From positions 1 to 32,536 of the forward strand of contig DASYPF010000152.1 of assembly GCA_036006905.1 (NCBI GenBank): a stretch of 32,536 bases of DNA, written 5' to 3'. Each line of letters starts with the position of its first letter. The first letter of the stretch is position 1. The position numbers and the translations under genes are program-made. The notes under the pieces were generated by a model. It searched no databases. It was not told where the DNA came from and saw only the letters and a list, made by a program, of their open reading frames with translations. This document shows, one piece after another, positions 3,547 through 32,536 of the stretch. The DNA is from Acidobacteriota bacterium (GTDB lineage: Bacteria > Acidobacteriota > UBA6911 > JACQSX01).

Positions 3547-3742
3547 AAAGCCGAGCACGCGCACGAGCACGTCAACGTCCACGACCACGACCACGTACGA
3601 TCACGTCTACGTTTGACGGCCGTATCCGTTGATAATTGTCGATTGCAGAGAGCTGAAGAGTGGCTGGAGATGATCTTTTCACGATCATGGACCTGGACGT
3701 GCTCGTTGACGTGCACGTGATCGTGGCTGTGAACGGCTTTTT
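3547..3742. repeat. Inverted pair of hexamer-periodic arrays, (CACGNN)n then (NNCGTG)n, around a ~80-bp unique centre
   Basis: The left arm at 3547-3607 is aaagccgagcacgcgcacgagcacgtcaacgtccacgaccacgaccacgtacgatcacgtc. The right arm at 3689-3742 is ggacctggacgtgctcgttgacgtgcacgtgatcgtggctgtgaacggcttttt. The arms are reverse-complementary, including the aaagccg/cggcttt ends. Confidence 0.85.
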
Positions 3743-4851: not shown

Positions 4852-5324
4852 GCTCTTACATCACCGGATTGCTGAAGAAGATTGTTTCAACCGACGAGAC
4901 ACCGAAACGGCTGGCGCTTTCTTTTACTATTGGCACATTCCTTAGCTTTTCGCCTCCGCTGGGAATCCACACGATCCTTGGTCTGTCGATCGCTTACCTG
5001 TTTCACCTGAATCGCACCGCCATGGTGGTCGGAGTTTACTTAAACAATCCCTGGACCATAGTCCCCTACTACGCCTTTGCCACCTGGGTGGGGATCAAGA
5101 TCACGGGTATGCCTGAGGGTGTGCAAATGCCGCATGTCGGCTTACGCGAAATCATGACGCGCGCCTTCTGGATGCAGATTATGGCAGAATGGAGAATTCT
5201 GATCCCGGCTGTCGTAGGTTCGCTGGTTCTGGCCCTGCTGATCGCGCTGGTCACCTATCCGATCATGCTGCATCTGATCGGGCGTTATCAAAAGCAACGG
5301 AGACTGCGGGCGCAGGTTGAGTAA
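4848..5324 (+). CDS. DUF2062-family small membrane protein
   Basis: 158 aa with a pattern typical of DUF2062: PKRLALSFTIGTFLSFSPPLGIHTILGLSIAYLFHLNRTAMVVGVYLNNPWTIVPYY, plus a C-terminal TM helix. It is translationally coupled to thiL. Confidence 0.6.
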   Translation: MSSYITGLLKKIVSTDETPKRLALSFTIGTFLSFSPPLGIHTILGLSIAYLFHLNRTAMVVGVYLNNPWTIVPYYAFATWVGIKITGMPEGVQMPHVGLREIMTRAFWMQIMAEWRILIPAVVGSLVLALLIALVTYPIMLHLIGRYQKQRRLRAQVE

Positions 5325-5326
5325 AG

Positions 5327-5623
5327 GGAATGCGGAATGGAAACGAATGCGGAATGACGAATGCGGAATGCCGAATGAAAAACCTGTTCCAGACCCTGGA
5401 GCACAGATGAAGGAGAACCCGTCGGCTCACAAGAGAGACTCGTTAAGCTCACCGTCCAGCCGGCCTTCATTCCGCATTCGGCATTCGCCATTCCGTATTC
5501 CCCTTCCGCATTCCCCAATTCATTCCGCATTTCCCATTCCGCATTCCCCATTCGGTTCATTCCGCATTCGCCATTCTGCACTCCACATTTGTTCCGCATT
5601 CCGCATTCCGCATTCCGCATTCG
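5327..5623. repeat. Asymmetric hairpin of heptamer arrays: (GGAATGC)~7, an 88-bp spacer, then (GCATTCC)~22
   Basis: The left arm at 5327-5377 reads ggaatgcggaatgg...gaatgcggaatgccgaatg. The right arm at 5466-5623 reads cattccgcattcggcattcgccattccg...ccgcattccgcattccgcattccgcattcg. The arms are reverse complements with a 7-nt period. Confidence 0.9.
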
Positions 5624-5625
5624 TT

Positions 5626-7119
5626 TTGATCCTGCTTCTGCTATGCACGCAAGTTTACGGCCAGGATCTGTCCGGAATCGTGAACATCAATTTCGTACCC
5701 GACGTGCGGCTCTTTATCGTCATGGCAGCTATTAACGCCGGCGGATTCAATTACGAGAGCGCGCCGTCCATGCATCCGGTGCGGTTGCAGGTACGGCAAA
5801 AGTTGAAGTTACTCGATCCGTTCCTGCTGCAGCGCCTTCATGATTTTTACATTGCCCATCACACAGTAGACAACCCGCAGCAGGAGATCGCGCGCTACAC
5901 CTCGCTGGCCTTGCTGCTCTCAGATCCGCCCCAATTGGAAATAAATTTGCCACCGAAAGATATTCCGCCCGAGGTTCACGACGTGCAGGGTTTTCAACAA
6001 ATTCTCCCCACCTTCTATCATCAGGCCGATTTGCAGCAGCTATGGGCTGAAGTGCGACCTCGGTATCTGGCCGAAATCGAACAATACAAGCCGGTCACGC
6101 GCCAGTCCATTGTCCAGGTCTTGCAGTATCTGCGTACCGAAGCGCGTATCGTCATGGACCGGCAAATCTTCTTTATCCCAGATTTGATGAGCGCTCATGG
6201 AGTCAGCAATTCGCGGATTGTCGGCAGCCTCTATTACCTGGTAGTCGGGCCGGCGGAGACCCCAGAGAAGAATCTGCGAAATATCCGCCACGAGTATCTA
6301 CACTTTTTGCTTGATCCGCTCATTGAGAAAAACGGCCTGGCAATCGTTCAGCAGCAGGAAGTGCTGCAACTGTTCAAAGATCGTCCCGAGCTGCTGGCAA
6401 AGTACCAAAAAGATCTCAAGCTTCTTAACACCGAATCTCTGATTGAAGCCATTCAACTTCGCATCGATCTGGTCAATCAAAATCGGCAGCGGCCCGTTTC
6501 TTCCGACAGCATTCGCGAGCAACTGGCACGGCACTACGACGCCGGGAACATTCTGGTTTATCACTACTACGAAAAGCTTCAGGATTTTGAGAGGGCTTCA
6601 GCCTCGTTTCCCGAATACCTGGCGGCGATTATTCAGTCGCTGGATATGAAACGCGAGCTGCAGCGCAAGGAGTGGTTTGTCGCTGAAGCCGAAAAACTAC
6701 GGCAGCAGCACGAAGTCCAATCGAAGCAATTGCAGGAGCGAATCGAGTGGGTGCGTCAACTGGAGCGTGCCAATGTTCTGTTGCAACAAAAAAACTTCGA
6801 TGAAGCGGAAAAAGTCTTGTTGCCAATGAAGGAGCGCCGGCCGGATGAACCGGCAGTGCTCTTCGGGTTGGGACAGATCCAGATACATCGTCAGAATGCG
6901 TCTGCCGCCGAGTCGTATTTCAACGCGGTGATCGCGCGGCCAGAAGCTCCGGCATGGATGGTAGCGTGGAGCCGCCTGAATCTTGCCTCAGTTTATCGGG
7001 CAACTGACCGCCTGGCGGAAGCGCGGGTGGCTCTGCAGCTTGTGGCGTCGTCCAACGAAGCCCTCCGGGGTGCCCGTGACGAAGCCAAAAAGCGGCTGGC
7101 GGACCTCCCGCCGCCTTGA
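5626..7119 (+). CDS. Secreted hypothetical protein with an HEXXH motif (putative zinc metallopeptidase-like) and a C-terminal TPR-like region
   Basis: The long ORF has coding-like composition from about 5630. HEYLH is encoded at 6289-6303. The C-terminus has TPR-like helices (NFDEAEKVLLPM...GLGQIQIHRQNASAAESYFNAVI...LASVYRATDRLAEARVAL). The track start at 5317 lies inside the heptamer arrays. I place the start at TTG 5626 (MILLLLCTQVYGQ, signal-like), but the start is uncertain. Confidence 0.55.
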   Translation: MILLLLCTQVYGQDLSGIVNINFVPDVRLFIVMAAINAGGFNYESAPSMHPVRLQVRQKLKLLDPFLLQRLHDFYIAHHTVDNPQQEIARYTSLALLLSDPPQLEINLPPKDIPPEVHDVQGFQQILPTFYHQADLQQLWAEVRPRYLAEIEQYKPVTRQSIVQVLQYLRTEARIVMDRQIFFIPDLMSAHGVSNSRIVGSLYYLVVGPAETPEKNLRNIRHEYLHFLLDPLIEKNGLAIVQQQEVLQLFKDRPELLAKYQKDLKLLNTESLIEAIQLRIDLVNQNRQRPVSSDSIREQLARHYDAGNILVYHYYEKLQDFERASASFPEYLAAIIQSLDMKRELQRKEWFVAEAEKLRQQHEVQSKQLQERIEWVRQLERANVLLQQKNFDEAEKVLLPMKERRPDEPAVLFGLGQIQIHRQNASAAESYFNAVIARPEAPAWMVAWSRLNLASVYRATDRLAEARVALQLVASSNEALRGARDEAKKRLADLPPP

Positions 7120-7129
7120 CATGGCTGGA

Positions 7130-7295
7130 CCAACAAGAAAGAGTCGAAGGTCGCAGGTCGAAGGTCTAAAGTCATCCTGTTTTTTTGACCTTCGACTTTC
7201 GGCTCCAACAAGAAAGAGTCGAAGGTCGCAGGTCGAAGGTCTAAAGTCATCCTTTTTTTTTGACCTTCGACTTTCGACCTTCGACTTTCGACTCT
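7130..7295. repeat. Near-perfect 75-bp tandem duplication of a (GTCGAAG/GTCGCAG)n hairpin unit; the second copy ends in a T-run and may act as a terminator
   Basis: The units start at 7130 and 7205. Their first 48 nt are identical: ccaacaagaaagagtcgaaggtcgcaggtcgaaggtctaaagtcatcc. Each is followed by T7-9 and gaccttcgactttcg. Copy 2 extends to gaccttcgactttcgactctcgcttttt. Confidence 0.9.
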
Positions 7296-7510
7296 CGCTT
7301 TTTATTTGCAACCCTTCGGTTGCCGGAGTCTCATAAGGGAGTAGTAGAAATTTTTTTGCTTCGAGCAGGTGGATTTGGATTAAGATATTTTCTTTTTCCC
7401 GACGGATACTGTGCAATTCTGATATCTCCATCTCCTGCTTGTCAGCTTGGCAGAATGGCTCTTGCATCCGTTTGAGAAGGCAAAAAACTGTGTCTACGGA
7501 GGACATTTAA

Positions 7511-8682: not shown

Positions 8683-8725
8683 CTTCCAGTGTGCTTCTTT
8701 TACGAGCACACCGGCACGCTGGAAG
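8683..8725 (+). promoter_or_regulatory. Stem-loop in the putative rnc leader
   Basis: cttccagtgtgc at 8683-8694 pairs with gcacgctggaag at 8714-8725 (12 bp, 1 mismatch). An alternative inner stem gtgtgct/agcacac exists. The structure lies 30 nt upstream of the rnc ATG. Confidence 0.4.
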
Positions 8726-8754
8726 CGAGCGCACCCGGGGCCCTTTTACTGTTT

Positions 8755-9465
8755 ATGAGTGACGAATTCTCAGACTTGCAGGCCCTGCAGCAAGCCCTGC
8801 AATATCCGTTCAAGGATCCTTCCTTCCTCGAGCGCGCGTTAACCCACAAGTCTTACTGTTACGAGCACCCCGACGCAGGTTTGTTTCATTACGAATCGCT
8901 GGAGTTTCTGGGTGACGCTATCCTGGGTTTTGTAATCAGCGACTTGATCTTTCGCCAGATACCGCTTTCCACTGAAGGAGAGCTTTCCAAGATCAAGGCT
9001 CATCTGGTAAGCGCGAAGAACCTCCTCCAATTCGCTCTGAGACTGGAGCTGGGCCGTTTTCTTCGTCTCAGTTATGGAGAAGAAAAGACCGGCGGGCGGA
9101 CCAAAGAGGCGCTAATGGTGGACTCTTTCGAAGCCGTGATCGCCGCCATTTATTTGGATGGAGGGATCGACGCCGCGCGGCAATTTATCGAACAACAATT
9201 CAGTTCCAGCTTGCAAAGCCTGGATTCCAGCAGTTTCACTTCTCCGGACTACAAGTCTCGCCTGCAGGAGCGACTTCACCAACTGGCACAGACAGAGCCA
9301 ATCTATCTTTTGGCCCATGAATCCGGCCCGGATCATCGCAAGCACTTTGTCGTCAAAGTGATCTCCGGCGGCGAAGTGCTGGCCTTGGGTGAGGGCAAGA
9401 CAAAGAAGGAAGCGCAACAGAATGCCGCCGAAGCGGCGCTTGAAAAACTGAAGGATAGGGGATAG
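8755..9465 (+). CDS. rnc: Ribonuclease III
   Basis: The RNase III signature is ALTHKSY...ESLEFLGDAILGFVISD. The catalytic region includes DSFEAVIAAIYLDGG. The C-terminal dsRBD reads HRKHFVVKVISGGEVLALGEGKTKKEAQQNAAEAAL. The family-consistent start is ATG 8755 (MSDEFSDLQAL). Confidence 0.93.
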   Translation: MSDEFSDLQALQQALQYPFKDPSFLERALTHKSYCYEHPDAGLFHYESLEFLGDAILGFVISDLIFRQIPLSTEGELSKIKAHLVSAKNLLQFALRLELGRFLRLSYGEEKTGGRTKEALMVDSFEAVIAAIYLDGGIDAARQFIEQQFSSSLQSLDSSSFTSPDYKSRLQERLHQLAQTEPIYLLAHESGPDHRKHFVVKVISGGEVLALGEGKTKKEAQQNAAEAALEKLKDRG

Positions 9466-9470
9466 TTTTG

Positions 9471-9689
9471 AGTCGCAGGTCGCAGGTCGAAAGTCGCAAG
9501 TCAACCATCAATTTCCAGGTTCAAGGTTCCGGGTTTCAGGTTCAAGGTTTCGGGTCCAAGGTTCCGGGTTTCGAGTTTTCAAGTTCCAAGTTCAGGGCTA
9601 CGAATCTCGAGGTTTTGAGTTTCTGGAACCCGGAACCTTGAACCCGGAACCTTGAACCCTTTGACCTTTGACTTGCGACCTTCGACTTG
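9471..9689. repeat. Nested two-family palindrome: outer (GTCGCAG/GTCGAAA)n arms enclose inner (GGTTCAA/GGTTCCG/GGTTTCG)n arms
   Basis: The outer arms are 9471-9505 (agtcgcaggtcgcaggtcgaaagtcgcaagtca) and 9657-9689 (ccctttgacctttgacttgcgaccttcgacttg). The inner arms are 9517-9595 and 9617-9658 (ggaacccggaaccttgaacccggaaccttgaaccc). It fills the gap between the convergent genes rnc and CPBP. Confidence 0.9.
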
Positions 9690-9696
9690 ATTGTTC

Positions 9697-10488
9697 CTAT
9701 TTGATTCCAATGAACCAATAGCCGATGACAACGATCCAGTCATATGCGGCGTGTGCGACCAGCGGGACAAGTAAGTTTTGTCTCCAGATGTAGGCCAGCC
9801 CGAACAGCAAGCCCAGAACGGTCGCGCTGGCGGCGTTGTCCCACCCCTGCAGGTAATGAGCAGAACCGAAATAAAGCGTGAAGACCGCAAGACCGGCGTA
9901 GATCCCGCCCAGATATTTTTCAAATCGCCTCAACACAAAAGCGCGCTGTACTTCTTCCTTTATCCCTCCGGAAAATGACACCATTACCAGGAACCAGATA
10001 ACATCTCTGGGCGTCTTGATCATCGACAGTAGTGGGTTCTGTTCGGTTACCAAATGGGGAAAATACTTTCTGAAAAAAACTCCCACTAGGGAAGTCGCTA
10101 GAAAGAGAGCGGGTACGAGGGCCAGCCCGATCAGGGCTTCACGCAAATATCGAGAACAGGTTCCAGACACAGTTTGCCACGACTCGTTTCGTGCTCTTAG
10201 AATCAGAGCAATGGTTGCAAGGACAAACAGGCTGTCGCAGATAACAAAGGCGGCCAGCAATCGAGATGACCGGAGAATCAATGAAGTTTTGAAACCAAGA
10301 AAATAAAAAATGCCCTGGAATACCAGTGTGGCCAACAGGTCTGTAGCGAAAATTATTTCCAGCAGAGCCTGAAACCGTCTGGCCCGGATTGCGCTCGTTG
10401 AATCAGCCTGTCGAATTTCGGGACTGTTTTGCCGCAAATGAAGGCGGATGAACGCGAATGCTTTTGAGTTGTCTCTTTTTCCTGTCAT
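9697..10488 (-). CDS. CPBP-family intramembrane glutamic endopeptidase (CAAX protease/Abi-like)
   Basis: This is a multi-pass membrane protein with the family motifs EEVQR (EExxxR), FGSAHY (FxxxH) and HAAYD (HxxxD/N). The first ~19 codons lie inside a palindromic element, so the true start may be internal. Confidence 0.75.
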   Translation of the reverse strand: MTGKRDNSKAFAFIRLHLRQNSPEIRQADSTSAIRARRFQALLEIIFATDLLATLVFQGIFYFLGFKTSLILRSSRLLAAFVICDSLFVLATIALILRARNESWQTVSGTCSRYLREALIGLALVPALFLATSLVGVFFRKYFPHLVTEQNPLLSMIKTPRDVIWFLVMVSFSGGIKEEVQRAFVLRRFEKYLGGIYAGLAVFTLYFGSAHYLQGWDNAASATVLGLLFGLAYIWRQNLLVPLVAHAAYDWIVVIGYWFIGIK

Positions 10489-14230: not shown

Positions 14231-14356
14231 AGCCCCGCACTAAGAATCTGTGAAAAAATCCGAGCCGCGACCGTTAGGGAGCGGACCCTCCGACGAGAGT
14301 CCGCTTGCTTACGCGCGCGGCTCAGTATTTTTTCACACGTTCTAAGGTGCGGGCCT
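14231..14356. repeat. ~125-bp palindromic element carrying the conserved core GAGCCGCGACCGTTAGGGAGCGG
   Basis: The left arm is agccccgcactaagaatctgtgaaaaaatccgagccgcg. The right arm is cgcgcggctcagtattttttcacacgttctaaggtgcgggcct. An inner agcggac...gtccgct stem is present. The core also occurs at 26367-26389, 27775-27797 and 27906-27928. Confidence 0.8.
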
Positions 14357-14374: not shown

Positions 14375-14667
14375 GCAGCCCGCGACTGCGGGCGAAAGCA
14401 TGTAGCCCCGGGTGGAGCGAAGCGAAACCCGGGGGTTACGAAAAAATATAAACGGGAGCCCGCCTTGGCGGGCGACAGAAAAGCCGATACCACGTACCGA
14501 CACCAGTGGGTTGTCGCGTGCTAACAACATCGGACTCACCCCTAAGCGCTATGGAATACCTGTCGCCTGCTATCGCGGGCTCGAATTGGTTTTGTTTCCC
14601 TAGATCCCCGGGTTTCGCTTCGCTCCAGCCGGGGCTACACGCTTTCGCCTGCCTACGGCGGGCTTGC
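14375..14667. mobile_element. ~290-bp MITE-like compound palindrome with ~60-bp terminal inverted repeats and no coding capacity
   Basis: The left TIR at 14375-14436 is ggcagcccgcgactgcgggcgaaagcatgtagccccgggtggagcgaagcgaaacccggggg. The right TIR at 14606-14667 is ccccgggtttcgcttcgctccagccggggctacacgctttcgcctgcctacggcgggcttgc. An inner pair is gagcccgccttggcgggcgacag with ctgtcgcctgctatcgcgggctc. Confidence 0.6.
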
Positions 14668-16888: not shown

Positions 16889-17092
16889 ATTGCGGATTCG
16901 GATTGTGGATTGCGGATTTTCCCGATTTCGGATTGCGGATTTCGGATTGCGGATTTCAAAAGCGTCCGTTGTCAGTTGTCCGTCGTCCGTGGTATAGCCA
17001 CAGGGTCACCGACTGCTTACAACTGACTACGGACAACGGACAAACTCCGCAATCCGCAATTGGGACAATCCGCATTCAGAAATCCACAATCC
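16889..17092. repeat. Nested hairpin: (GCGGATT)n, (GTCCGTTGT)-type inner arm, centre, (ACAACGGAC), (AATCCGC)n
   Basis: The left arm at 16889-16957 reads attgcggattcggattgtggattgcgg...ttcggattgcggatttc. The inner arms are 16964-16990 and 17019-17042. The right arm at 17046-17092 reads tccgcaatccgcaattgggacaatccgcattcagaaatccacaatcc. Confidence 0.9.
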
Positions 17093-17103
17093 ATTTCACT
17101 GCC

Positions 17104-17589
17104 ATGATTACCGGCACACTGATTGTAACCGTGGGAATCTGCTCCCTGGTGCTGTTGGGCGTGGTGGGGCTTCTCTACGCGCGCCGAAAACGGTACCTGC
17201 AGACGGGCGGCCTTTCGGCTGTCATTCACCGCTACTACCTGAAAGGCCCGACAGCCACCGAACGCCAACGGGACCTTTTCCTGACACTTCTCTGTTATGA
17301 AGATCGCTTCCCCAGCTTTGCAGGCATATTGGAAAAAATAGCTCCGCATTTTCCTCTGACCTATTTCGCGGGCAAGCCTGAGTTCCGGCATGCACTGGAT
17401 AACTTGGTAGATCTCGCCGATCAGGGTATGGGCTCGGAAGGCGCCCAAATGGGAGAGCGGGCGGCGCTTGCCAGCATCGTGCGCATCGTAATTGAGGACA
17501 GACACGTTCATCAGCTCTATGGGAGAGAACTGGAGCCCCTGGTGGACAACTTTATTGAGGAGCTGGGGATTGGAGTTGCGGCAAGTTAA
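17104..17589 (+). CDS. Hypothetical single-pass membrane protein (161 aa)
   Basis: ATG 17104 is followed directly by a TM helix and a positive patch (MITGTLIVTVGICSLVLLGVVGLLYARRKR). Composition downstream is coding-like. The track start at 16903 lies in the repeats. No family was recognised. Confidence 0.5.
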   Translation: MITGTLIVTVGICSLVLLGVVGLLYARRKRYLQTGGLSAVIHRYYLKGPTATERQRDLFLTLLCYEDRFPSFAGILEKIAPHFPLTYFAGKPEFRHALDNLVDLADQGMGSEGAQMGERAALASIVRIVIEDRHVHQLYGRELEPLVDNFIEELGIGVAAS

Positions 17590-17824
17590 TTGCGGATTGC
17601 AGATTTTGGAATTGCGGATAGTTCCGATTGCGGATTGCGGATTTTGGATTGCGGATTTCGGTTTGCCGAATGCTGATTGACCGAGTTCGATTTCTTGGCC
17701 GTTTCATCCATCTCCCCTCTAGATGATTTGCCCGTCGACATTGGCGAGTGGTTTTCAATCCGCAATCCGAAATCAACAATCCGCCATTCTAAGATCCGCA
17801 ATCCGTAATCCCCAATCCGCAATA
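17590..17824. repeat. (GCGGATT)n ... (AATCCGC)n hairpin between convergent genes
   Basis: The left arm spans 17590-17679 and starts at the base after the TAA stop. The right arm spans 17756-17824 and ends 5 nt before the BCCP stop. The unique centre is about 76 bp. Confidence 0.9.
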
Positions 17825-17829
17825 GGACC

Positions 17830-18324
17830 TCACTTCACTTCAAACAACAACTGCCCGGTGTTGACGGGCTGGCCTTCTTTAACTGCAATTTGTGCCAGGA
17901 CCCCACGACATGGGGAACGAATCTCGTTTTGCATTTTCATCGCTTCAATGAGCAGAACTGCTGTATTTTTCTCCAAAGCGTCTCCGATCGATTTCAAAAG
18001 CTTGACCACGCGTCCAGGCATCTGCGCCTTGATTGATTGCACTCCCTTCGGCGTGTCGCTTTCGGCTGCCAGCTGGAGCCTCTGGTCCAATAATTCCATC
18101 AAATAGGTTTTGCCGGAGAGGATCACCGTGTACTGGTTCGCCTGCCGATGAACCACCGCATCCACGATTCTTCCATTCCTGCTGATGAGACAATGCGATC
18201 CGCTGAGCTTTTGAAACTCCAGGCTCACCGGCTGGCCGTCCAGTAGAATTTCAGTTTCACCTCGGCCGCCGGAAAACTCAACGATGTGGGCATCGCCATT
18301 GGCAAGTCGCGCAACCAGCTTCAC
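17830..18324 (-). CDS. Biotin carboxyl carrier protein subunit of acyl-CoA carboxylase
   Basis: The C-terminal biotinyl domain has the EAMKM motif (VLLIEAMKMQNEIRSPCRGVLAQIAVKEGQPV). The GTG start overlaps the accC stop (GTGA). Confidence 0.85.
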   Translation of the reverse strand: MKLVARLANGDAHIVEFSGGRGETEILLDGQPVSLEFQKLSGSHCLISRNGRIVDAVVHRQANQYTVILSGKTYLMELLDQRLQLAAESDTPKGVQSIKAQMPGRVVKLLKSIGDALEKNTAVLLIEAMKMQNEIRSPCRGVLAQIAVKEGQPVNTGQLLFEVK

Positions 18325-19796: not shown

Positions 19797-19807
19797 GGAC
19801 TTATTCT

Positions 19808-20097
19808 AATTGCGGATTTCAGATTTCGGATTGCGGATTGTTTTGATTTCGGATTGTGGATTTCGGATTGCGGATTGCAGCATCCGTGGTGAGTTGTCCG
19901 TTGTTGGTGAAGGCAGCATGAGTTCGGCCTGCTTCCACTCTTGCCCAACTGCATCCACTCATTTTCATAAAATCGGCAATGAAACTAAGCTTTTTCCAGC
20001 AACGGACAACTGACAACGGACGCCCAAAATCCGCAATCCGCAATCTGCAATCCGAAATTGAAACAATCCGCAATCCGAAATCCGCAATCCGCAATTG
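19808..20097. repeat. Nested (GCGGATT)n/(AATCCGC)n hairpin lying between pccB and accC on the same strand
   Basis: The left arm spans 19808-19880 and the right arm 20027-20097. The inner arms are gttgtccgttgttgg (near 19893) and caacggacaactgacaacggac (20000-20021). The 20-mer ggacaactgacaacggacgc at 20004-20023 is the exact reverse complement of 16962-16981. Confidence 0.9.
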
Positions 20098-20098
20098 A

Positions 20099-21649
20099 TT
20101 ACAGCGGTATATTGCCGTGTTTGCGGGGCGGATTCTTGTCGCGCTTGTTGGCGGCCATTTCCAGGGCCCGAATTAATTTGAGGCGTGTTTGACGTGGATG
20201 GATCACCTCATCGATGTAGCCGCGCTCGCTGGCAATGTAAGGTGACGCAAATTTGTCGCGGAACTCTTCGATTTTCTGCCGGCGGAAATCTTCCGGATTC
20301 GAAGCGCGCTCCAGTTCGGAGCGATACAGGATATTGACGGCGCCTTCCGGTCCCATCACAGCAATTTCGGCGGTAGGATAGGCATAATTCATGTCAGTGC
20401 GAATATGCTTCGAGGCCATCACACAATAGGCTCCCCCGTACGCCTTGCGCGCAATGACTGTGATCTTAGGGACGGTGGCCTCTGCAAAAGCGTAAAGCAG
20501 CTTGGCGCCGTGCTTAATGATCCCTCCGTATTCCTGATTCACACCGGGCAGAAATCCGGGCACGTCTTCAAACACTATTAGCGGAATGTTGAATGCATCG
20601 CAGAAACGGACAAATCTGGCGGCCTTTACCGAGGCCCCGATGTCCAGTGTGCCCGCCAGCACCGACGGCTGATTGGCGACAATACCGACGGACCGTCCGT
20701 TCAAACGCGCAAAACCCACAATCATGTTTTGCGCGTATGCTTCTTGTACCTCAAGGAATCGATGGTCGTCGACTACGGCCCTCAGCAGTTGCTTCATGTC
20801 GTAGGGAAGATTGGGATCGACAGGAATCAATTGGTCCAACTCGGGATTCTCGCGCTCCGCCGAGTCGGAATTTTCGTAACAGGGTGGATCCTCCATGTTG
20901 TTGAGGGGAAGATAGGAAAAAAGTTCACGGATCATGGCAAGACAACTGCGATCGTCCGACGCCGCAAAATGAGCAACTCCGCTTAGTTCGTTGTGCGTCG
21001 AAGCTCCGCCCAGCTCCTCCTTGGTGACGTTTTCATGCGTGACCGCCTTGATCACATCCGGGCCAGTGATAAACATGTAGCTGGTCTTTTCCACCATGAA
21101 GATGAAATCGGTGATCGCGGGGCTGTAGACCGCTCCTCCCGCACATGGCCCCATGATGGCCGAGATCTGCGGCACCACTCCCGAGGCAAGCGTGTTGCGC
21201 AGAAAAATATCCGCATAACCGCCTAAGCTGATTACTCCTTCTTGAATCCGCGCCCCCCCGGAATCATTGAGACCGACGACAGGGCCGCCCATCTTGATGG
21301 CCAGATCCATAATCTTGCAGATTTTTTGGGCGTAGGTCTCGCTCAGGCTGCCACCGAAGACTGTGAAGTCCTGGGCAAACGCAAAAACCAGGCGGCCATC
21401 AATCTTTCCATATCCGGTAACGACTCCGTCGCCAGGGATCTTCTGATTCTCCATGCCGAAGTCACTGCAGCGGTGGATGACAAACTTGTCCACTTCATTG
21501 AAGCTCCCTTCATCGAACAGGAAGTCGATTCGCTCGCGCGCCGTCATCTTGCCGGCGCTATGCTGGCGCTGCAGACGCGCCTCGCCGCCTCCCAGTTCCG
21601 CAGCGCGATTGCGCTTCTCTAACTCTTCGAGCTTGCTTTTCAGGTCCAT
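20099..21649 (-). CDS. pccB: Acyl-CoA carboxylase carboxyltransferase subunit (propionyl-CoA carboxylase beta / methylmalonyl-CoA carboxyltransferase family)
   Basis: 516 aa from ATG 21649 ([14 protein letters not shown]...[22 protein letters not shown]). The family hallmarks DFTVFGGSL and AYGGAY are present. The track start at 21688 extends into the repeat. Confidence 0.95.
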
Positions 21650-21651
21650 GG

Positions 21652-21970
21652 TTCGATTGCGGATTGTCTTGATTGCGGATTGTCTCAATTGCGGATTGTC
21701 TCAATTGCGGATTGCGGATTGCGGATTGCCGGATTTCGGATTGAATCCATTGCGGATTGCGGATTGCGGATTGGTAACCACGAAGGCACCAAGTCACAAA
21801 CCGTACCTTTCCTGGTGTCATTGTGCCTTCGTAGTGCACTTATAACGAAACTGTCTAAGAAACTCTCTATGGAGTCAATCCGCAATTCGAAATCCGCAAT
21901 CCGCAATGGAGCCAATCCGCAATCCGAAATCCGCAATTGAGACAATCCGCAATTGAAACAATCCACAATC
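21652..21970. repeat. (GCGGATT)n/(AATCCGC)n hairpin with a unique centre that contains its own small hairpin
   Basis: The left arm at 21652-21773 includes attgcggattgtctcaattgcggattgtctcaattgcggattgcggattgcgg. The centre hairpin is acgaaggcac...gtgccttcgt. The right arm spans 21875-21970. The element begins 2 nt from the pccB ATG. Confidence 0.9.
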
Positions 21971-22756: not shown

Positions 22757-23821
22757 CTACTGAAAATCTACCCGCATAGTTTCCGAAGGGGCGCTCTCGT
22801 TTCCCTTAAGATCAACGGCGGTCACGCGGTAGTAATAAGTGCCTTTGGCCGGTGGCACATCCGGGAAACTGTTTACTACCACCAGCATTCCGGTTATTTT
22901 CTGAAAGGCGCTTTCGCTTGCGCCTCTATAGACATTGTACCCCTGTAAGTCCATTTCGGAGTTAGGTTCCCACGCCAATTCGATTCGTCCGCCAGAAACG
23001 ACGGCCCCCAGGCCTTTTGGGGTCGACGGGGGAAATACATCTGTGGTGGTCACCGAAACTGTGGCGGACATGGGTCCAAAGGCGGGCGGGGCTTGCGCGG
23101 AGCGGGTCTGGACAGCGTAAAAGTAGGTCTGATCAGGAACTGCCGCAGCATCCCGGTACTGGCGCACGTCTCCCTCGATGTCGCTGATCTTTTCCAGGGT
23201 CGTTTGGGTGCTTCCTCGGAATACGCGGTAGCCGATGACGCGCGGCGGCACCGAGCCATCCAGGTTCCGCTGCGGGGCTGCCCAACGCAGGATCACCGCC
23301 TGCTCGGTGACCTCGGGAGGTCGCAGTGCCGGAGCCAAGGCCGGTGCAATGGGAGAGATAAAAACGATATTTGACAATTGTGAAGCAACCTTACGCGGGC
23401 TGTAGAACCGCACAGCATAGAAGAAACTGCGTTGGAAAAGGAGCATTGGGTCCTGAAACGCCACGACATCTTCATACCGATAACGGTTGTCTTTCAAAAT
23501 CTTCTTCAGATCGTCAGGCCACAATTTGGCGATGATTTGACCGCCCTGTTCGAGCCGACCGGAGGCGGCCGGAGGCGGCTGGTCGGATCGAGGAAGAGCC
23601 AGGCGGTAAATGGCAACCGTTCCCAATTGCAGTGGCTTACCATCAGCATAGGTTGCGGGAAGTGAGAAATCCAAAAGGATGTGGTTTTCTTGCTGTTCCA
23701 GGCGCAAATCGCCGATGGTGGACGGCGGGATCAAGTAGGGAGGCTGAGGATCGGCAATTTTGGCGCAAGACAAAACTGTGATCGCGCAAATCAGGAGTAA
23801 CGGTCGCAGGTCGCAAGTCAT
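22757..23821 (-). CDS. Lipoprotein with fibronectin type III-like domains
   Basis: The lipobox is MTCDLRPLLLICAITVLSC. The Fn3-like repeats include RPPEVTEQAVILRWAAP...VIGYRVFRG and GRIELAWEPNSEMDLQGYNVYRG...YYYRVTAVDLKGNES. The first ~6 codons are encoded by GTCGCAG-type heptamers. Confidence 0.7.
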   Translation of the reverse strand: MTCDLRPLLLICAITVLSCAKIADPQPPYLIPPSTIGDLRLEQQENHILLDFSLPATYADGKPLQLGTVAIYRLALPRSDQPPPAASGRLEQGGQIIAKLWPDDLKKILKDNRYRYEDVVAFQDPMLLFQRSFFYAVRFYSPRKVASQLSNIVFISPIAPALAPALRPPEVTEQAVILRWAAPQRNLDGSVPPRVIGYRVFRGSTQTTLEKISDIEGDVRQYRDAAAVPDQTYFYAVQTRSAQAPPAFGPMSATVSVTTTDVFPPSTPKGLGAVVSGGRIELAWEPNSEMDLQGYNVYRGASESAFQKITGMLVVVNSFPDVPPAKGTYYYRVTAVDLKGNESAPSETMRVDFQ

Positions 23822-24178
23822 CAGTCATCAGTCATCGGTCATCAGTCATCAGTCATCGGTCATCGGTCATCAGTCATCGGTTATCGGTCATCGGTCATCG
23901 GTCATCGGTCATCGGTTATCGGTCATCGGTTATCGGTCATCGGTTATCGGTCATCGGTCATCGGTCATCGGTCATCGGTCATCGGTCAATGACCCATCAG
24001 TGACACACCTACAAATTTTCAGGTCCACAGGCATCAGGTCTAGCTTGGCTAGAAGTCATAAGTCGGTAGTATCTGGCTGGCTGACCTGTTGACGCGCCGA
24101 CGTGTGATTGATGATCGCTGACCGATGCCGGGTACCGAATGACTGTTGACCGATGACCGATGACTGATGACCGATGAC
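23817..24178. repeat. (TCATCGG/TCATCAG)~26 array, ~110-bp centre, degenerate (CCGATGA/CTGATGA)~10 array
   Basis: The left arm spans 23817-23998 and is 182 bp of almost uninterrupted heptamers. The right arm spans 24108-24178 and ends ...gaccgatgaccgatgactgatgaccgatgac. The element lies between hslU and the Fn3 lipoprotein gene on the same strand. Confidence 0.92.
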
Positions 24179-24180
24179 TT

Positions 24181-25623
24181 TTAGAGAATATACTTGGAAA
24201 GATCCTGGTTTTTGACGATTTCGGCCAGCATCTTGTGTACGTAAACTGCGTCGATAACCTGGTGCTTCTCTTTTAGTTCCGGACCCTCAAAGGAAATCTC
24301 ATCGAGCAGCGCTTCCATGATCGTGTGGAGACGGCGCGCGCCGATGTCCTCGTTGGCCTCGTTGACGCGAGCCGCATAGTGAGCAAGTTCTCTGACGGCG
24401 TCGTCGGTAAATTCCAGCTGTACTCCTTCCGTCTCCATCAATGCGATGTATTGCTTCACCAGGGCGCTCTTTGGCTCTTTCAAAATGCGAATGAAATCTT
24501 TTTCGGTCAGGCTCTTCAACTCCACTCGAATAGGGAAGCGACCCTGTATCTCCGGTATCAAATCAGAAGGCTTGCTTACATGAAAGGCGCCGGCTGCGAT
24601 AAAGAGTATGTGATCGGTTCGAATCATTCCGTACTTGGTGTTGACCGTCGTGCCTTCCACAATGGGAAGAATATCCCGCTGCACCCCTTCACGGCTTACG
24701 TCCGGACCATGGCCCGTCTCGCGTCCCGCAATCTTGTCGATTTCGTCCAAAAAAATAATGCCTGAGTCTTCGACCCGTTCCACTGCCTCGCGTGCCACTT
24801 GGTCCATGTCGATTAGCTTGGATTCCTCTTCCTGGATCAAATACTCGATCGCCTCGGAGACTTTCATCTTGCGCTTTTTGGTCTTGCCGCCGAAGAGCCC
24901 TGGCAGCATGTCCTTAACGTTGATGTCCATCTCCTCAACGCCCGTGTTGGTGATAATTTCAAAAGATGGAAACGAGCGGTCGCGCACTTCGATCTCCACC
25001 ATTCGCTCGTCCAACTTTCCCTCGCGCAACTGCTGGCGGAGTTTTTCACGCGTACGCTGGGCGCGCTCCCTCGCTTCATCTGAGGCGAGCCCAATGCCTT
25101 CACCTGCCGTAATTGGCTGAATGGGAGGAAGCAACAGGTCAAGGACTCGCTCTTCAGCAGCGCTCTCGGCCTTTTCCTGGACCTCGAAAGTTTTTTCCGT
25201 CCGAACCATCTCTACAGAGATTTCTGTGAGGTCGCGAATCATGGATTCCACGTCGCGACCCACATATCCGACCTCGGTAAACTTGCTTGCCTCTACTTTC
25301 AAAAACGGCGAATTAGCCAGCTTAGCCAGCCTGCGGGCGATTTCGGTCTTCCCGACGCCGGTCGAGCCGATCATGATGATATTCTTAGGCGCCACTTCTT
25401 CAGCCATCTCTTCATCCAGCTTCTGGCGCCGCATGCGATTGCGCAGCGCGATGGCCACGGCACGCTTGGCCTCTTTTTGGCCAACGACGTATTTGTCCAG
25501 CTCGGCTACGATCTGCCGAGGCGTCAACTCATCCAGATTGATCTGGGGTTCTTCAGTTTCATTGGAAGCAGCAATACTCATTTCGTTAACTTTGCCTTCT
25601 AAATTCGAATTGTAAGGACTCAT
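24181..25623 (-). CDS. hslU: ATP-dependent protease ATPase subunit HslU
   Basis: [17 protein letters not shown], Walker [16 protein letters not shown], Walker [11 protein letters not shown] and the C-terminal [10 protein letters not shown] motif are present. The start is ambiguous. ATG 25623 avoids a 32-nt overlap with hslV, and ATG 25659 or 25581 are also possible. Confidence 0.93.
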
Positions 25624-26194: not shown

Positions 26195-26334
26195 TAAAGT
26201 TTCCTTAACTCTGGTCTCTTGATTCAGGACACTAGCAGCACATATCCAAAGAGCGAAACATCAAGTATAGCGAAATGGCGCGCGGCAGTCAGCTACCATG
26301 GATGCGCAGCGTAGCGAAGCCGCAACCAAAGGCC

Positions 26335-26523
26335 GCTGGCGTAGTCGCAAAGTGTCACATCGGCGCGCCGCTCCCTTCCGGTCGCGGCTCTGTGGGCGCC
26401 GATTTCAGCGCTGCCGCACACTGACCCGAATGGCGTGCGAGTATTCTTCATCTGCTCTCTCTACGTTGGGCGTTTTCGTTGACCTGCGCGTGCTCGTGAT
26501 CGTCGACGCAGTCGTTTTAGCTG
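26335..26523 (+). repeat. Copy A of a ~190-bp dispersed repeat: conserved core plus a (GTGCTC/GTGATC) hexamer tail
   Basis: It aligns almost base for base with the reverse complement of 27531-27833. The shared segment is gcaaagtgt.acatcggcgcgccgctccct.ccggtcgcggctctgtggg..c...ttca.cgctgcc.cacactg.cccgaat..cgtgcgagtatt.ttcatc, ending in gttgac.tgc.cgtgctcgtg. It lies in the divergent hslV/truA promoter region. Confidence 0.85.
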
Positions 26524-26619
26524 CCATAAATCTTGCTAGAAAATCAAGAAATTGCCATGCTACGCAGAGGCGACGGGGGCGTCTGCGACATGGCCGCGTC
26601 TGCGCAGAAACTGGATCCA

Positions 26620-27465
26620 ATGATTCGGTGTCTCAAATTAACTTTGGAGTACGACGGAACGCGCTATCACGGCTGGCAAAGTCAAAAGAACAGCCGCACC
26701 GTCCAAGATGCGTTGACCGCCAGTGCCCGCGACGTTCTGAATACAGCAGTCGAGGTAGGAGGCGCGGGCCGAACCGACGCTGGGGTTCATGCGCTTGCCC
26801 AGGTCGCGCACCTAAAGTTTCGAGTTTTGGGTTCCCAGTTTCGTGTTGTGGCCCGCACCAGCAGAACTCCAGCAACTCGAAATCTTAAACCCGAAACACG
26901 AGACTTGAAGCTGCTGCGTGATCAACTCAATAAGACGCTTCCCTCAGACATTGCTGTGCTTGAGGTCGAAGAGGCAGATGCCGGCTTTCACGCCCGCCAT
27001 GACGCTGTTTGCCGCTATTACCTCTATCAGGTGGCCAGCCGAAAGACGGCCTTTTCCAAAAGATTTGCCTGGTGGGTCAAGGAGCCTCTCGACGTAGCAG
27101 CGATCCAAGAAGCGGTGAAACTGCTTTTGGGCCGGCACGACTTTGCGGCCTTCGGAGAGAAACGAGGTGAGAAGAAATCTACTGTCGTTGAAGTGTACGA
27201 GTGCTCGCTCAGTGTGGCTGGAGAGCTAATTCTGATCCGGATCGGGGCTTCTCACTTCCTGTGGAAAATGGTGCGCCGTCTGATCGGTTCGCTGGTGGAG
27301 ATCGGGCGCGGCAACTTGAATCCGGAAGTTTTTGAGCGGATGTTAACAAAGCAGCAGAGTTCGGCCGCTGCCTGGACCGCGCCTGCCTCCGGCTTGTTTC
27401 TGGAGAAGGTCACCTATTCGGACGGCGATCTCCCTGGGGAGTTACGTCCGGTGCTGTGGGTTTGA
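26620..27465 (+). CDS. truA: tRNA pseudouridine(38-40) synthase TruA, carrying a ~22-aa in-frame insertion
   Basis: The sequence has MIRCLKLTLEYDGTRYHGWQSQ, the catalytic Asp in GAGRTDAGVHA, FHARHDAVCRYYLY and GASHFLWKMVRRLIGSL. The start is set at ATG 26620 by family alignment. ATG 26590 or 26557 are possible. Confidence 0.9.
   Translation: MIRCLKLTLEYDGTRYHGWQSQKNSRTVQDALTASARDVLNTAVEVGGAGRTDAGVHALAQVAHLKFRVLGSQFRVVARTSRTPATRNLKPETRDLKLLRDQLNKTLPSDIAVLEVEEADAGFHARHDAVCRYYLYQVASRKTAFSKRFAWWVKEPLDVAAIQEAVKLLLGRHDFAAFGEKRGEKKSTVVEVYECSLSVAGELILIRIGASHFLWKMVRRLIGSLVEIGRGNLNPEVFERMLTKQQSSAAAWTAPASGLFLEKVTYSDGDLPGELRPVLWV
26815..26908. repeat. Heptamer-periodic palindrome (GTTTCGA/GTTTTGG/GTTCCCA/GTTTCGT ... 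complement) embedded in frame within truA
   Basis: The left arm is aagtttcgagttttgggttcccagtttcgtgttg and the reverse complement of the right arm is aagtctcgtgtttcgggtttaagatttcgagttg, giving 25 of 34 matches. The encoded peptide is KFRVLGSQFRVVARTSRTPATRNLKPETRDLK. Confidence 0.8.
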
Positions 27466-27530: not shown

Positions 27531-27986
27531 AAAACCGATCACGTCCACGAGCACGTGCACGTCAACGACCACGCCCACGGATACGGGAGCATAGACGGTG
27601 ACCTTTGATACTGGAGCGTCCCGCCCATAGGGTACTGCACTTTTTTTGTCAGCGTCGACGTGGCTGAGTTGCCAGATTGTGAAATTTGGTTTTTTCAACC
27701 AGTTTTTACCACGGAGATGAAAAATACTCGCACGAAATTCGGGGCAGTGTGGCAGCGTTGAAGTGGGCACCCACAGAGCCGCGACCGGGAGGGAGCGGCG
27801 CGCCGATGTAACACTTTGCCACTACACCAGCGCAGAGTTGCTGCAACAATGATGCGGGCGGTCCGATTTTGCCGAACGTGATTGCGATGACTCACTCTGG
27901 CGCGCCGCTCCCTTCCGGTCGCGGCTCTGTGGGTGCCGTCACCAAGCCGGCAGCCGTATGCTCGTGGACGTGGCCGGTTTTAGCTG
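27531..27986. repeat. Composite palindrome formed by copy B (27531-27833, minus orientation, with a ~110-bp internal insertion) and truncated copy C (27899-27986, plus orientation) of the ~190-bp repeat
   Basis: The core arms are gcacccacagagccgcgaccgggagggagcggcgcgcc (27768-27805) and ggcgcgccgctcccttccggtcgcggctctgtgggtgc (27899-27936), about 38 bp with 1-2 mismatches. The outer arms are cacgtccacgagcacgtgcacgtcaacgaccacg (27540-27573) and gctcgtggacgtgg (27960-27973). The element lies between truA and glpX. Confidence 0.8.
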
Positions 27987-28020: not shown

Positions 28021-29067
28021 ATGGAAAACGATCAAAGAATGGAGCAGCTCTCCCTCGATTTTTTGCGTGTCTGCGAGGCGGCGGCGATTGCGGCGGCTCA
28101 GACTATGGGACAGGGAGATCGCCAATACTCCGACCGTCTCGCTGTCGAAGCGATGAGAGAGGTGATGGACACCATCCTGATGCGCGGTCGGATCGTGATC
28201 GGGGAAGGCGAACGCGATCAGGCGCCCATGTTGTACATCGGCGAAGAGGTGGGTGCCGGCGCGCGTGGCGGCTGCGACACGGGCCGCGATTGTCCCCCAG
28301 TAGACATCGCGGTGGATCCACTGGAGGGCACCAATCTGTGCGCGCTCGGCGCCAACAATGCAATCTCGGTGCTGGCGGCGTCCGAACGCGGCGGTCTTTT
28401 GAACGCTCCGGATATCTACATGGACAAAATTGTAGTCGGGCCCTCGTCGCGCGGCGCCATCGACCTTGATGCGCCTGTCAAGGACAACTTGAAGAACATC
28501 GCACGGCGATTGGGGCGTGAAGTAAAGGATCTGACGGTGGTCGTGCTGGATCGTTCACGCCACAAAAAGCTGATTCAGGACGTGCGGGGAGCGGGGGCGC
28601 GTATCCGCTTGATCGGCGATGGCGACCTGTCGGCGGGTATCTCGGCTGCGGTCGGAGGAACGAACATCCATGCGTTGATGGGCATAGGGGGCGCCCCTGA
28701 AGGCGTCCTTACGGCGGCGGCAATGCGATGTTTGAACGGAGAGATTCAGGCCCGTCTCTGCTTTGACCCGGAACGTTTAAGCGTGGACAAAAACAAGGTG
28801 CCCCCACAGGAGAAGGTGATCAGCCGCCTGCACGAGATGGGGATTAATGATCACAACAAAGTTTTCGACACAAATGACCTGGCGCCGGGCAAGAAGATCA
28901 TTTTCGCGGCTACAGGGGTGACGGATGGGGCGCTGCTTCGAGGGGTCCGTTTTTTCGGCACGGGCAAAAGGACTCATTCTTTGGTCATGACCGCCGAGAC
29001 CAGGCATATACGGTTCATCGACACTGTCCACGTCGAAGGCGGACCGGACACGGTGGTGCGGTTTTAG
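28021..29067 (+). CDS. glpX: Class II fructose-1,6-bisphosphatase (GlpX type)
   Basis: The GlpX family pattern is present: [10 protein letters not shown]...[22 protein letters not shown]...[12 protein letters not shown]...[10 protein letters not shown]...[20 protein letters not shown]. Confidence 0.92.
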
Positions 29068-32036: not shown

Positions 32037-32338
32037 ATCAGGTCGGCAAGTCACGGATCAGTAAGTCACAGGTCACGGGTCAGGAAGTCAAAGGTCACAG
32101 GTCGCGGGTCAGGAAGTCCAAGGTCACAGGTCACGGGTCAGGAAGTCCAAGGTCACAGGTCAACAGGTCACAGGTCAGCAGCCATCAGGCCTGCTACCTG
32201 CTAACCAACCTGTAACCTGTGACCTTCTAGCTTGTTGACCTGTAACCCGTGACCTATGACCTGTGACTTCCTGACCTGTGACCTGTGACTTCCTGACCTT
32301 ATCACTTGCTGACCCGTGACTTGCTGACTTGTTGACCC
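32037..32338. repeat. Hairpin of (GGTCACA/GGTCACG/GGTCAGG/AAGTCAA)n and complementary (TGTGACC/CCTGACC)n arrays
   Basis: The left arm spans 32037-32180, the centre near 32181-32200 reads gccatcaggcctgctacctg, and the right arm spans 32201-32338. The element begins 3 nt from the nadB start. Confidence 0.9.
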
Positions 32339-32390
32339 TTGTAGGCGTTCTCGAAACAGATGAAACCTCAAAGCTTCTGTCGTCGTAAAC

Positions 32391-32536
32391 ATGACTGATG
32401 ACTGATGACTGATGACTGATGACTGATGACTGATGACTGATGACTGATGACTGATGACTGATGACTGATGACTGATGACTGATGACTGATGACCAATGAC
32501 CGATGACCGATGACCGATGACCGATGACCGATGACC
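32391..32536. repeat. Perfect tandem array (ATGACTG)x14 followed by ATGACCA and (ATGACCG)x5+, running off the window
   Basis: Direct reading shows 98 bp of uninterrupted ATGACTG, then a switch to ATGACCG. It belongs to the same family as the 3' arm at 24108-24178. Confidence 0.95.

Follow-up and report, generated by a model that had tools for sequence, protein, structure and literature searches.

How does DNA built from seven-nucleotide repeats come to be read as part of a conserved enzyme, and does it enter the gene as a mobile element or grow there in place? The question is raised by truA in a contig of an Acidobacteriota bacterium near Pyrinomonadaceae and Blastocatellia (DASYPF010000152.1, positions 1 to 32,536; this whole stretch of 32,536 nt is referred to as the window), where a hairpin of degenerate tandem heptamers at 26815-26908 lies within the TruA coding sequence (26620-27465). 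An earlier note, made from the sequence alone, had described this element as a heptamer-periodic palindrome that adds about 22 residues to a TruA loop without a stop codon or a change of frame, and had taken it to be a mobile or copied hairpin that invaded the gene. The position, sequence, inverted-repeat structure, added length and translation all held on re-examination, whereas invasion and mobility were not supported. Judging from the alignment of related alleles, the truA element is probably a long-standing part of the gene whose length rises and falls in situ, and not a recent arrival.

Anatomy of the hairpin and its host gene

The element is 94 nt long, lies on the forward strand and encodes residues K66 to K96/L97; it consists of AAGTTTCGAGTTTTGGGTTCCCAGTTTCGTGTTGTGG, a spacer, and CAGCAACTCGAAATCTTAAACCCGAAACACGAGACTTGA, with 33 base pairs in its fold. 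The left arm (26815-26851) comprises five degenerate heptamers, (AA)GTTTCGA, GTTTTGG, GTTCCCA, GTTTCGT and GTTGTGG, which encode KFRVLGSQFRVV, and its first ~21 nt are common to the homologous alleles L169 and L001 and partly to the short allele L003. The spacer at the top of the hairpin (26852-26868, translated as ARTSRTP) is the part of the element most diverged from L169. The right arm (26869-26906), CAGCAACTCGAAATCTTAAACCCGAAACACGAGACTT, is the complement of the left and encodes ATRNLKPETRDL; its start (CAGCAACTCGAAA) and end (CGAGACTTG) are common to the window, L169 and L173. At the boundaries, CTAAAG precedes TTTCG on the left and GACTTGAAG is followed by CTGCTG on the right, with no target-site duplication longer than 3 nt and no terminal inverted repeats, the arms being heptamer arrays and not transposase-type termini. 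An independent assembly (L172) carries the identical element sequence, which is therefore not an assembly artefact.

Both the palindrome and the periodicity stand well above background. A repeat finder places inverted arms at 26817-26840 and 26874-26897, and the best ungapped register over 38-nt arms gives 26/38 Watson-Crick matches, compared with a mean of 13.9 (standard deviation 1.8) for segments of the same geometry elsewhere in the window, 0.07% of which reach 26. Registers shifted by +7 and -7 come next, an independent sign of the heptamer period. Folding of 26805-26915 (111 nt) as RNA yields -41.1 kcal/mol versus -24.9 +/- 3.3 for 200 dinucleotide shuffles, none of them equally stable (z = -4.97). 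Identity at a lag of 7 nt is 0.51-0.57 in each arm against 0.25 (standard deviation 0.075) outside arrays, and a value of 0.51 is reached by 0.27% of non-array positions; intergenic arrays score 0.7-1.0. Head-to-tail 7-nt units are present across the element (lag-7 identity 0.44-0.57) and are clearer in the homologous arrays of L169 (0.54), L001 (0.56) and L173, while no two neighboring heptamers in the window element are identical. The heptamer periodicity of the truA element is real but degenerate, and weaker than in the intergenic arrays. Rfam has no match in the window, and neither a terminator nor a promoter was predicted at the hairpin, which lacks a terminator-like T-run.

The host gene is intact. 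Its open reading frame (ORF) on the forward strand encodes 281 amino acids from MIRCLKL, with no stop or frameshift in its 281 codons, and a longer ORF is possible from a TTG at 26533. The protein matches TruA structures in the PDB (E 8e-36; E. coli and Thermus TruA, E about 1e-35) and combines the TruA fold with the catalytic aspartate in GRTDAGVH that characterizes the pseudouridine synthases of this family (PF01416). This aspartate, nearly invariant in the TruA alignment A1, is D53 in the window protein, where the motif is intact; its codon, gac, was located at 26776-26778 on the forward strand by alignment to the E. coli motif. Between the conserved KF and LN the window protein has 35 residues versus 13 in E. 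coli TruA, and HMMER alignments to 1dj0, 2nqp and 1vs3 break at the insert, where query residues 70 to 99-103, paired with 71 to 81 in E. coli and 64 to 75 in Thermus, hold ~23 residues in excess. The insert encodes a 7-aa periodic peptide (FRVLGSQ/FRVVART) with six Arg and two Lys versus two acidic residues, a net charge of about +6. The AlphaFold model (mean predicted local distance difference test score, pLDDT, 81) superposes on 2nqp, 1dj0 and 1vs3 at template-modeling (TM) scores of 0.76-0.86. In this model strand 57-68 and helix 91-106 enclose residues 69-90, which are low-confidence coil (block-mean pLDDT 56 and 51). The 12-residue strand, which starts 4 residues past D53, separates the catalytic Asp from the insert, so that the insert is predicted to start a full strand away. 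The insert of about 22 residues is thus modeled as a low-confidence loop between a beta-strand and a helix, and would be floppy and disordered at the protein surface.

Comparison with L169, whose TruA is 84% identical, separates the insert from the rest of the gene. Outside the insert, codon positions 1+2 show an identity of 0.90-0.99 compared with 0.68-0.75 for position 3, and the better conservation of the first two positions indicates that truA is under purifying selection. We accordingly rejected a pseudogene, and also ribosomal bypassing, an intein or removal of the segment, since the frame is continuous, without a stop codon and without intein motifs. Inside the insert, identity is 0.757 at positions 1+2 and 0.757 at position 3, and in the 28-codon insert core the values are 68% and 79%; with no codon-position bias, the peptide evolves as if unconstrained. 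The loop appears permissive, so the protein tolerates about 22 extra residues. That a hairpin of this kind can be tolerated in coding sequence is therefore upheld by an intact truA under purifying selection, and the metH linkers described below add independent support.

Distribution and length changes of the truA loop

The TruA loop was surveyed between the anchors GVH and LN..LP in about 160 loci from Acidobacteriota. This distance is 22 or 25 residues in 124 of the loci and 45 in the window, and the loop itself, taken between the same anchors as for the 35 residues of the window TruA, measures 14-17 residues in nearly all other Acidobacteriota. Two other groups of the phylum have conserved loops of 29 and 35 residues whose DNA is non-periodic. 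Long, mutually unalignable loops are confined to a small clade comprising the window, L169/P0010, P0003, P0011, P0043/L173, P0004, P0002, P0005, P0007, P0008 and P0009. In a neighbor-joining distance tree built without the loop from ten clade taxa and outgroups (P0011 and P0043/L173 were left out), the long-loop clade has a bootstrap of 198/200, and the loops of its 10 members in the tree are 19-61 aa long versus 14-17 in the outgroups. The earlier note had proposed a search for insertion-free alleles, and one short allele was found, P0006 (19 residues); it is sister to P0005 (55 aa) at 200/200, and being nested beside this long allele it represents a secondary contraction. Because expanded loops are clade-wide, the expansion is old and is neither a phylum-ancestral loop, the alternative that the earlier note had named, nor a recent insertion in the window genome. 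Genomes outside the clade that are rich in heptamer arrays have truA loops of normal length, which argues against recurrent insertion. A scan of metagenomes returned, among the matches listed, relatives at 55% identity or less, and the closer alleles came from protein-cluster contigs. In one of these (L169 360-920) an internal TTG was taken as the start of the protein P0010 despite an open frame from 75 onward, and another contig (L173 1-795) begins 15 nt upstream of the hairpin. Gene callers or assemblers thus truncated truA at the hairpin, and public protein sets will consequently under-report such inserts.

Seven truA alleles with DNA could be compared. The loop region of L169 has the same length as that of the window (111 nt, of which 84 are identical) and folds at -33 kcal/mol, so the length of the array is unchanged since these lineages split. 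At about 73% protein identity, L173 (P0043) has at the same site a 240-nt heptamer hairpin of -125 kcal/mol with obvious heptamer arms, and its peptide SATRN corresponds to PATRN of the window at the start of the right arm; the spacer, too, is common to L173 and the window, and P0011 shows the same hairpin architecture as L173. These alignments make the hairpin old, and homologous in lineages whose proteins are 84% and about 73% identical to that of the window. The left arm starts on K-F-R-[VI] codons, and the contracted P0006 keeps these codons, with the heptamer-like AAGTTCCGAATTTCGGATTC at its left edge. An ancient hairpin in a clade-wide loop, with the codons under its left arm retained in the short allele, lends no support to the invasion of coding sequence that the earlier note had envisaged.

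The lengths of three close alleles differ in whole sets of heptamers. P0003, whose flanks are 68/68 and about 91% identical to those of P0011, retains a single-direction array of about ten NNGTTYC units. The loops of P0003, P0011 and L173 measure 31, 73 and 80 aa, and the differences among them, 42, 7 and 49 codons (18, 3 and 21 heptamers), can each be divided by 7; the 7 residues by which P0011 and L173 differ sit wholly in the left arm. No out-of-frame (OFF) allele occurs among the seven alleles with DNA, all of which are in frame. Other heptamer flavors are found at the same truA site in L009 (GGTNTCG/CACCCGA) and L006 (ATTCCGA/GGATTCCG).

Coding sequences other than truA also contain such elements. 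A scan of all fetched loci for 7-periodic stretches flanked on either side by 80 or more codons without a stop found in-frame heptamer hairpins in metH (methionine synthase) of two related Acidobacteriota (L145 530-611 and L048 2340-2434). Both sit in the linker between the S-methyl_trans (homocysteine-binding) and Pterin_bind domains, with Pfam matches on both sides, and lengthen the protein by 15-17 residues compared with L089. Permissive linkers outside TruA can therefore be encoded by in-frame heptamer arrays too. At 85% identity between the two MetH proteins, the hairpins use different heptamers (GTTTCGA/GTTACAA/GTTGCGA against GGTTTGG/GGTTGGA). Single-direction 7-nt stretches occur in topA (L057 1515-1567), in the linker between zinc ribbons of topoisomerase I, and in an E2 acyltransferase gene (L083 5083-5126), in the 2-oxoacid dehydrogenase linker between lipoyl domains; with lag-7 identities of 0.57-0.60 these are weaker candidates than metH. 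Many GC-rich lag-7 candidates in ORFs of other loci were discarded as low-complexity false positives, and candidates in L127 and L032 were set aside for want of Pfam support.

Origin and maintenance of the element

We consider it probable that the truA element is a resident heptamer-repeat quasi-palindrome of single origin, evolving in place by slippage and tolerated by the protein. The quasi-palindrome would have arisen once, in the ancestor of the small clade, within the loop joining the beta-strand of the catalytic Asp to the next helix. Replication slippage would then add or remove heptamers in the arms, and, 7 not being divisible by 3, survival would be limited to frame-preserving changes, typically of three heptamers (21 nt, 7 codons). 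Arms could be lost and the whole array could collapse, and arm complementarity would probably be renewed at times by intrastrand template switching. In the Ripley model of quasipalindrome template switching, either arm of an imperfect inverted repeat can serve as the template for recopying its partner, which keeps complementarity without selection; it is established as a process of point and cluster mutation in E. coli and phage and is not known to maintain long heptamer arrays, and no signature of it is detectable between the arms of the window and L169. The window lineage would be left with a short degenerate relic that codes for a disordered, Arg-rich, neutrally drifting loop, and no function is needed to explain the element. 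Slippage is also the process to which the abundance of heptanucleotides, the most frequent long simple-sequence repeat units of prokaryotes, is ascribed (PMC4679880).

Several observations weigh against this explanation. The pattern of multiples of 7 is based on three alleles and has a chance of about 1/49, and comparison of the 37 residues of the window with 31, 73 or 80 in the more distant alleles gives differences that are not multiples of 7 codons. The deepest members of the clade (P0007, P0008, P0009 and P0004) have GC-rich inserts without 7-nt periodicity, so that loop expansion may predate the heptamer array, or the arrays of these members may have decayed. The differing heptamers at the one metH site fit replacement as easily as concerted evolution. 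In 2000 random-substitution simulations that matched the number and type of substitutions between the window and L169, the hairpin was kept slightly better than expected (P about 0.03 each way), a hint that neutrality may not be the whole account. Finally, the unobserved origin may have been the copying of an intergenic array that has this flavor.

Comparison with described systems helps to place the element. Rickettsia palindromic elements (RPEs) measure about 150 bp and fall into defined families, each with a conserved peptide and dozens of dispersed copies in unrelated genes (PMC10969869). Like them, the truA element is hairpin DNA of roughly 100 nt (94 nt, -41 kcal/mol and 26/38 matching arm positions, for a usual size of about 100-150 bp) read in frame in a housekeeping gene, with the host protein intact, its catalytic motif present, its flanks under purifying selection, and the extra peptide placed where the fold tolerates insertion. 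Unlike RPEs, its arms are degenerate tandem heptamers that change by gain and loss of units at one site. A multicopy family was not found, only 9-12-nt matches being present within the 32.5-kb window, and no conserved peptide occurs elsewhere: the 32-aa peptide of the window, searched against 1.84 billion representative proteins, returned its own cluster and a chance match to an unrelated repeat protein (P0121), and the 68-aa hairpin-encoded peptide of P0011 returned nothing in a peptide search. The RPE precedent invoked in the earlier note therefore stands as an analogy, that of a tolerated in-frame palindrome, and not as membership. Nor do the boundaries have the terminal inverted repeats and target-site duplication of a miniature inverted-repeat transposable element (MITE).

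Systems built on tandem repeats share other features. In neuO of E. coli K1 and phage CUS-3, heptanucleotide repeats lie within the coding sequence, which is translated in full only if the repeat count can be divided by 3, and array length changes by slippage (PMC13001214). The truA ORF likewise contains 7-nt units that rotate the frame, three units giving a peptide period of 7 residues, but the neuO repeats are perfect and unidirectional and act as an on/off phase switch at the 5' end, in contrast to the degenerate, palindromic, internal array of truA; with no identical adjacent heptamers and seven alleles all in frame, phase variation of the neuO type was not found. The STRR arrays of cyanobacteria (short repetitive sequences in tandem) and the TAACTGA arrays of Beggiatoaceae resemble the arrays described here in being genome-wide, mostly intergenic tandem heptamers, and whole-unit change in copy number between close relatives, a mark of such long simple-sequence repeats, is seen in three truA alleles (P0003, P0011 and L173). 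They differ in belonging to other phyla and in being mostly direct and not hairpin-forming. In heterocystous cyanobacteria the gene for RNase P RNA reportedly contains STRRs (Vioque 1997), so the known intragenic STRR case is an RNA gene and the truA case a protein loop. A few sets of TAACTGA lie inside ORFs (PMC4679880). In Borg elements, rapidly evolving tandem repeats in ORFs add disordered peptide segments (PMC9879509), as the in-ORF repeats of truA would do. By comparison, the truA unit is 7 nt and its arrangement palindromic. The genic repeat units of Borgs are direct and multiples of 3 nt. We classify the truA element as joining two known kinds, in-frame palindromic DNA and tandem-repeat-derived disordered segments.

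The alternative closest to the original proposal is that a mobile or template-copied hairpin entered truA in the manner of RPEs or MITEs, with different elements entering the same permissive or targeted site in other lineages. In its favor, besides the in-frame RPE precedent (PMC10969869), is a flavor shared with an unlinked intergenic array of GGTTYCR/GTTTCGA type at 9513-9660 (no strand assigned; located with Tandem Repeats Finder and by sequence), downstream of rnc. The truA element has 12-, 9- and 9-nt matches with 9547-9579, and the best non-truA matches of the L173 hairpin in the window all lie in 9546-9593 (15/15 with E 0.006, 14/14, 12/12, and 17 nt at 94%, twice). The earlier note had assigned the truA element to the family of these inner arms at 9517-9658, and the heptamer flavor bears this out; copying does not follow, because the arrays are of low complexity and have no longer segment in common, and neither a target-site duplication nor a terminal repeat is present. 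The truA flavors that differ by lineage (L009, L006) and the different hairpins at one linker of 85%-identical metH genes would also suit repeated arrival. Against this, no second copy of the element was found within the 32.5-kb window beyond the short matches given above, the peptide has no relatives outside its own cluster among 1.84 billion representative proteins and none in a word-indexed search, the hairpin is homologous and ancient across the window, L169, L173 and P0011, truA loops are unexpanded in heptamer-rich genomes from outside the clade, and length changes in 21-nt quanta. We regard such an entry as unlikely, and the argument that the element is mobile or copied rather than a product of local slippage is not supported, given the quanta of 21 nt and no target-site duplication, terminal repeat or dispersed conserved copy. 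A related proposal, which we find doubtful, is that a group of Acidobacteriota writes and rewrites heptamer hairpins at preferred sites including linkers of housekeeping proteins, with arms replaced in concert and flavors copied between loci. If it were true, what is conserved would be hairpin potential and not peptide, and RNase III or some other factor that binds hairpins might read it; candidate sites would be the loop of TruA, the interdomain linker of MetH and perhaps the TopA and E2 linkers, and the process would be a simple-repeat analogue of the protein-coding palindromes of Rickettsia.

A function would require that the mRNA hairpin control truA through ribosome pausing or through cleavage by RNase III, whose gene rnc is at 8689-9465, or that the basic disordered loop aid tRNA binding. 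The six Arg and two Lys against two acidic residues, the persistence of the hairpin at this site over long divergence and its stability in both the window and L169 relative to the simulations are all compatible with this, as are a compensatory G-C to A-T double change and three single changes that all give G-U on the sense strand. The arms nevertheless do not co-evolve: complementarity is 26 and 24 of 37 within the genomes of the window and L169 and 25 and 23 between them, so compensatory evolution is not claimed despite the one double change. The best-conserved outer stem overlaps the conserved residues KFR and RDLKLLR, which can account for its conservation, and with the arms showing no co-evolution, selection on structure is unproven. 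Divergence at codon positions 1+2 as fast as at position 3 speaks against selection on the peptide, truA stays intact where the hairpin has collapsed (P0006) or lost an arm (P0003), and neither an Rfam match nor a terminator-like T-run was found; a functional element is in our judgment improbable. Coincidence, that is, an ordinary lineage-specific variable loop whose palindromic and heptameric look is unrelated to the hairpin arrays of the genome, could draw on the 29- and 35-residue loop classes without periodic DNA in other Acidobacteriota and on the non-periodic inserts of deeper clade members. It is hardly credible given a hairpin z of -5, arm complementarity in the top 0.07%, lag-7 identity of both arms in the top 0.3%, clearer heptamer arrays at the homologous site in L173, L169 and L001, and the flavor match to an intergenic array.

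As a long-resident array, the truA element would be a natural example of non-triplet (7-nt) repeat DNA in an essential-type gene, in which the reading frame filters length changes to three-unit quanta while the peptide drifts and the site stays hypervariable. Together with metH, it suggests that the intergenic heptamer hairpins of these soil bacteria can generate new disordered protein segments. The truA orthologues at 70-85% identity also provide a dated, alignable locus for measuring array expansion, arm loss and decay, which the intergenic arrays cannot give since they turn over too fast to align.

Heptamer arrays and other repeats of the window

Heptamer arrays cover about 4% of the window; the strong ones all lie between genes and occupy almost every intergenic gap. 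Heptamer-repeat hairpins are found at 5335-5640, 7127-7314, 9448-9699, 16896-17068, 17601-17836, 19797-20109, 21685-21954, 23788-24194, 32061-32293 and 32373-32536. They comprise roughly ten flavors, often nested, with outer arms of GGTCGCA type around other inner arms, and orthologous gaps in L001 likewise hold arrays, partly of other flavors. Inverted heptamer arms around a spacer are common to the truA element and the intergenic arrays (for example 9461-9689 and 23788-24194), the former being smaller and more degenerate. Two near-perfect arrays, (GTCATCG)x24.6 at 92% (23817-23988) and (ATGACTG)x20.7 at 97% (32391-32535), look recently expanded, and the second runs off the end of the window. 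Apparent overlaps of arrays with ORFs 5317-7119, 20099-21688 and 22757-23821 were taken for artefacts of start-codon extension, lying at the ORF end outside the Pfam-matched part; the array at 16896-17068 overlaps ORF 16903-17589, for which there is no Pfam match. The gene for RNase III, rnc, stands directly before 9461-9689, one of the largest nested heptamer hairpins, and long perfect stems such as this would be RNase III substrates if transcribed.

The habit is not peculiar to this genome. Among 130 Acidobacteriota loci of at least 4 kb (from L001-L173), 24 have lag-7 arrays at more than 10 nt/kb, and mean array density is 5.2/kb at lag 7 versus 0.4 at lag 6 and 1.0 at lag 8; lag-7 arrays in so many loci indicate that the habit reaches well beyond the clade of the window. 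A full-text literature search found no published description of heptamer-hairpin arrays of Acidobacteriota. The TAACTGA heptamer is abundant in marine Beggiatoaceae and some cyanobacteria (PMC4679880), and tandem TAACTGA repeats with an inverted copy lie just upstream of truA in a Pyrinomonadaceae metagenome-assembled genome (L033 5902-5972).

The surroundings of truA contain repeats of another kind. Inverted copies of a GC-rich repeat of 120-170 nt, 88-90% identical and not heptamer-based, flank the gene at 26334-26503 and 27541-27832. A third, partial copy at 27877-27938 forms a 39-nt, 97% hairpin with 27766-27804, and fragments recur at 3547-3740 and 14262-14284; this repeat is a family distinct from the heptamer arrays. 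A further GC-rich inverted repeat, likewise not heptamer-based, has 47-nt arms at 14388-14434 and 14606-14652 (94% complementary, 171-nt spacer) and holds a short match to the truA-flanking repeat. After a repeat-rich spacer of 555 nt, a glpX-like gene (28021-29067, named from its ORF translation alone) stands between truA and a gene for a PALP enzyme. In the syntenic loci L001 and L003 the PALP gene directly follows truA, an arrangement that suggests a local rearrangement or insertion in the window lineage.

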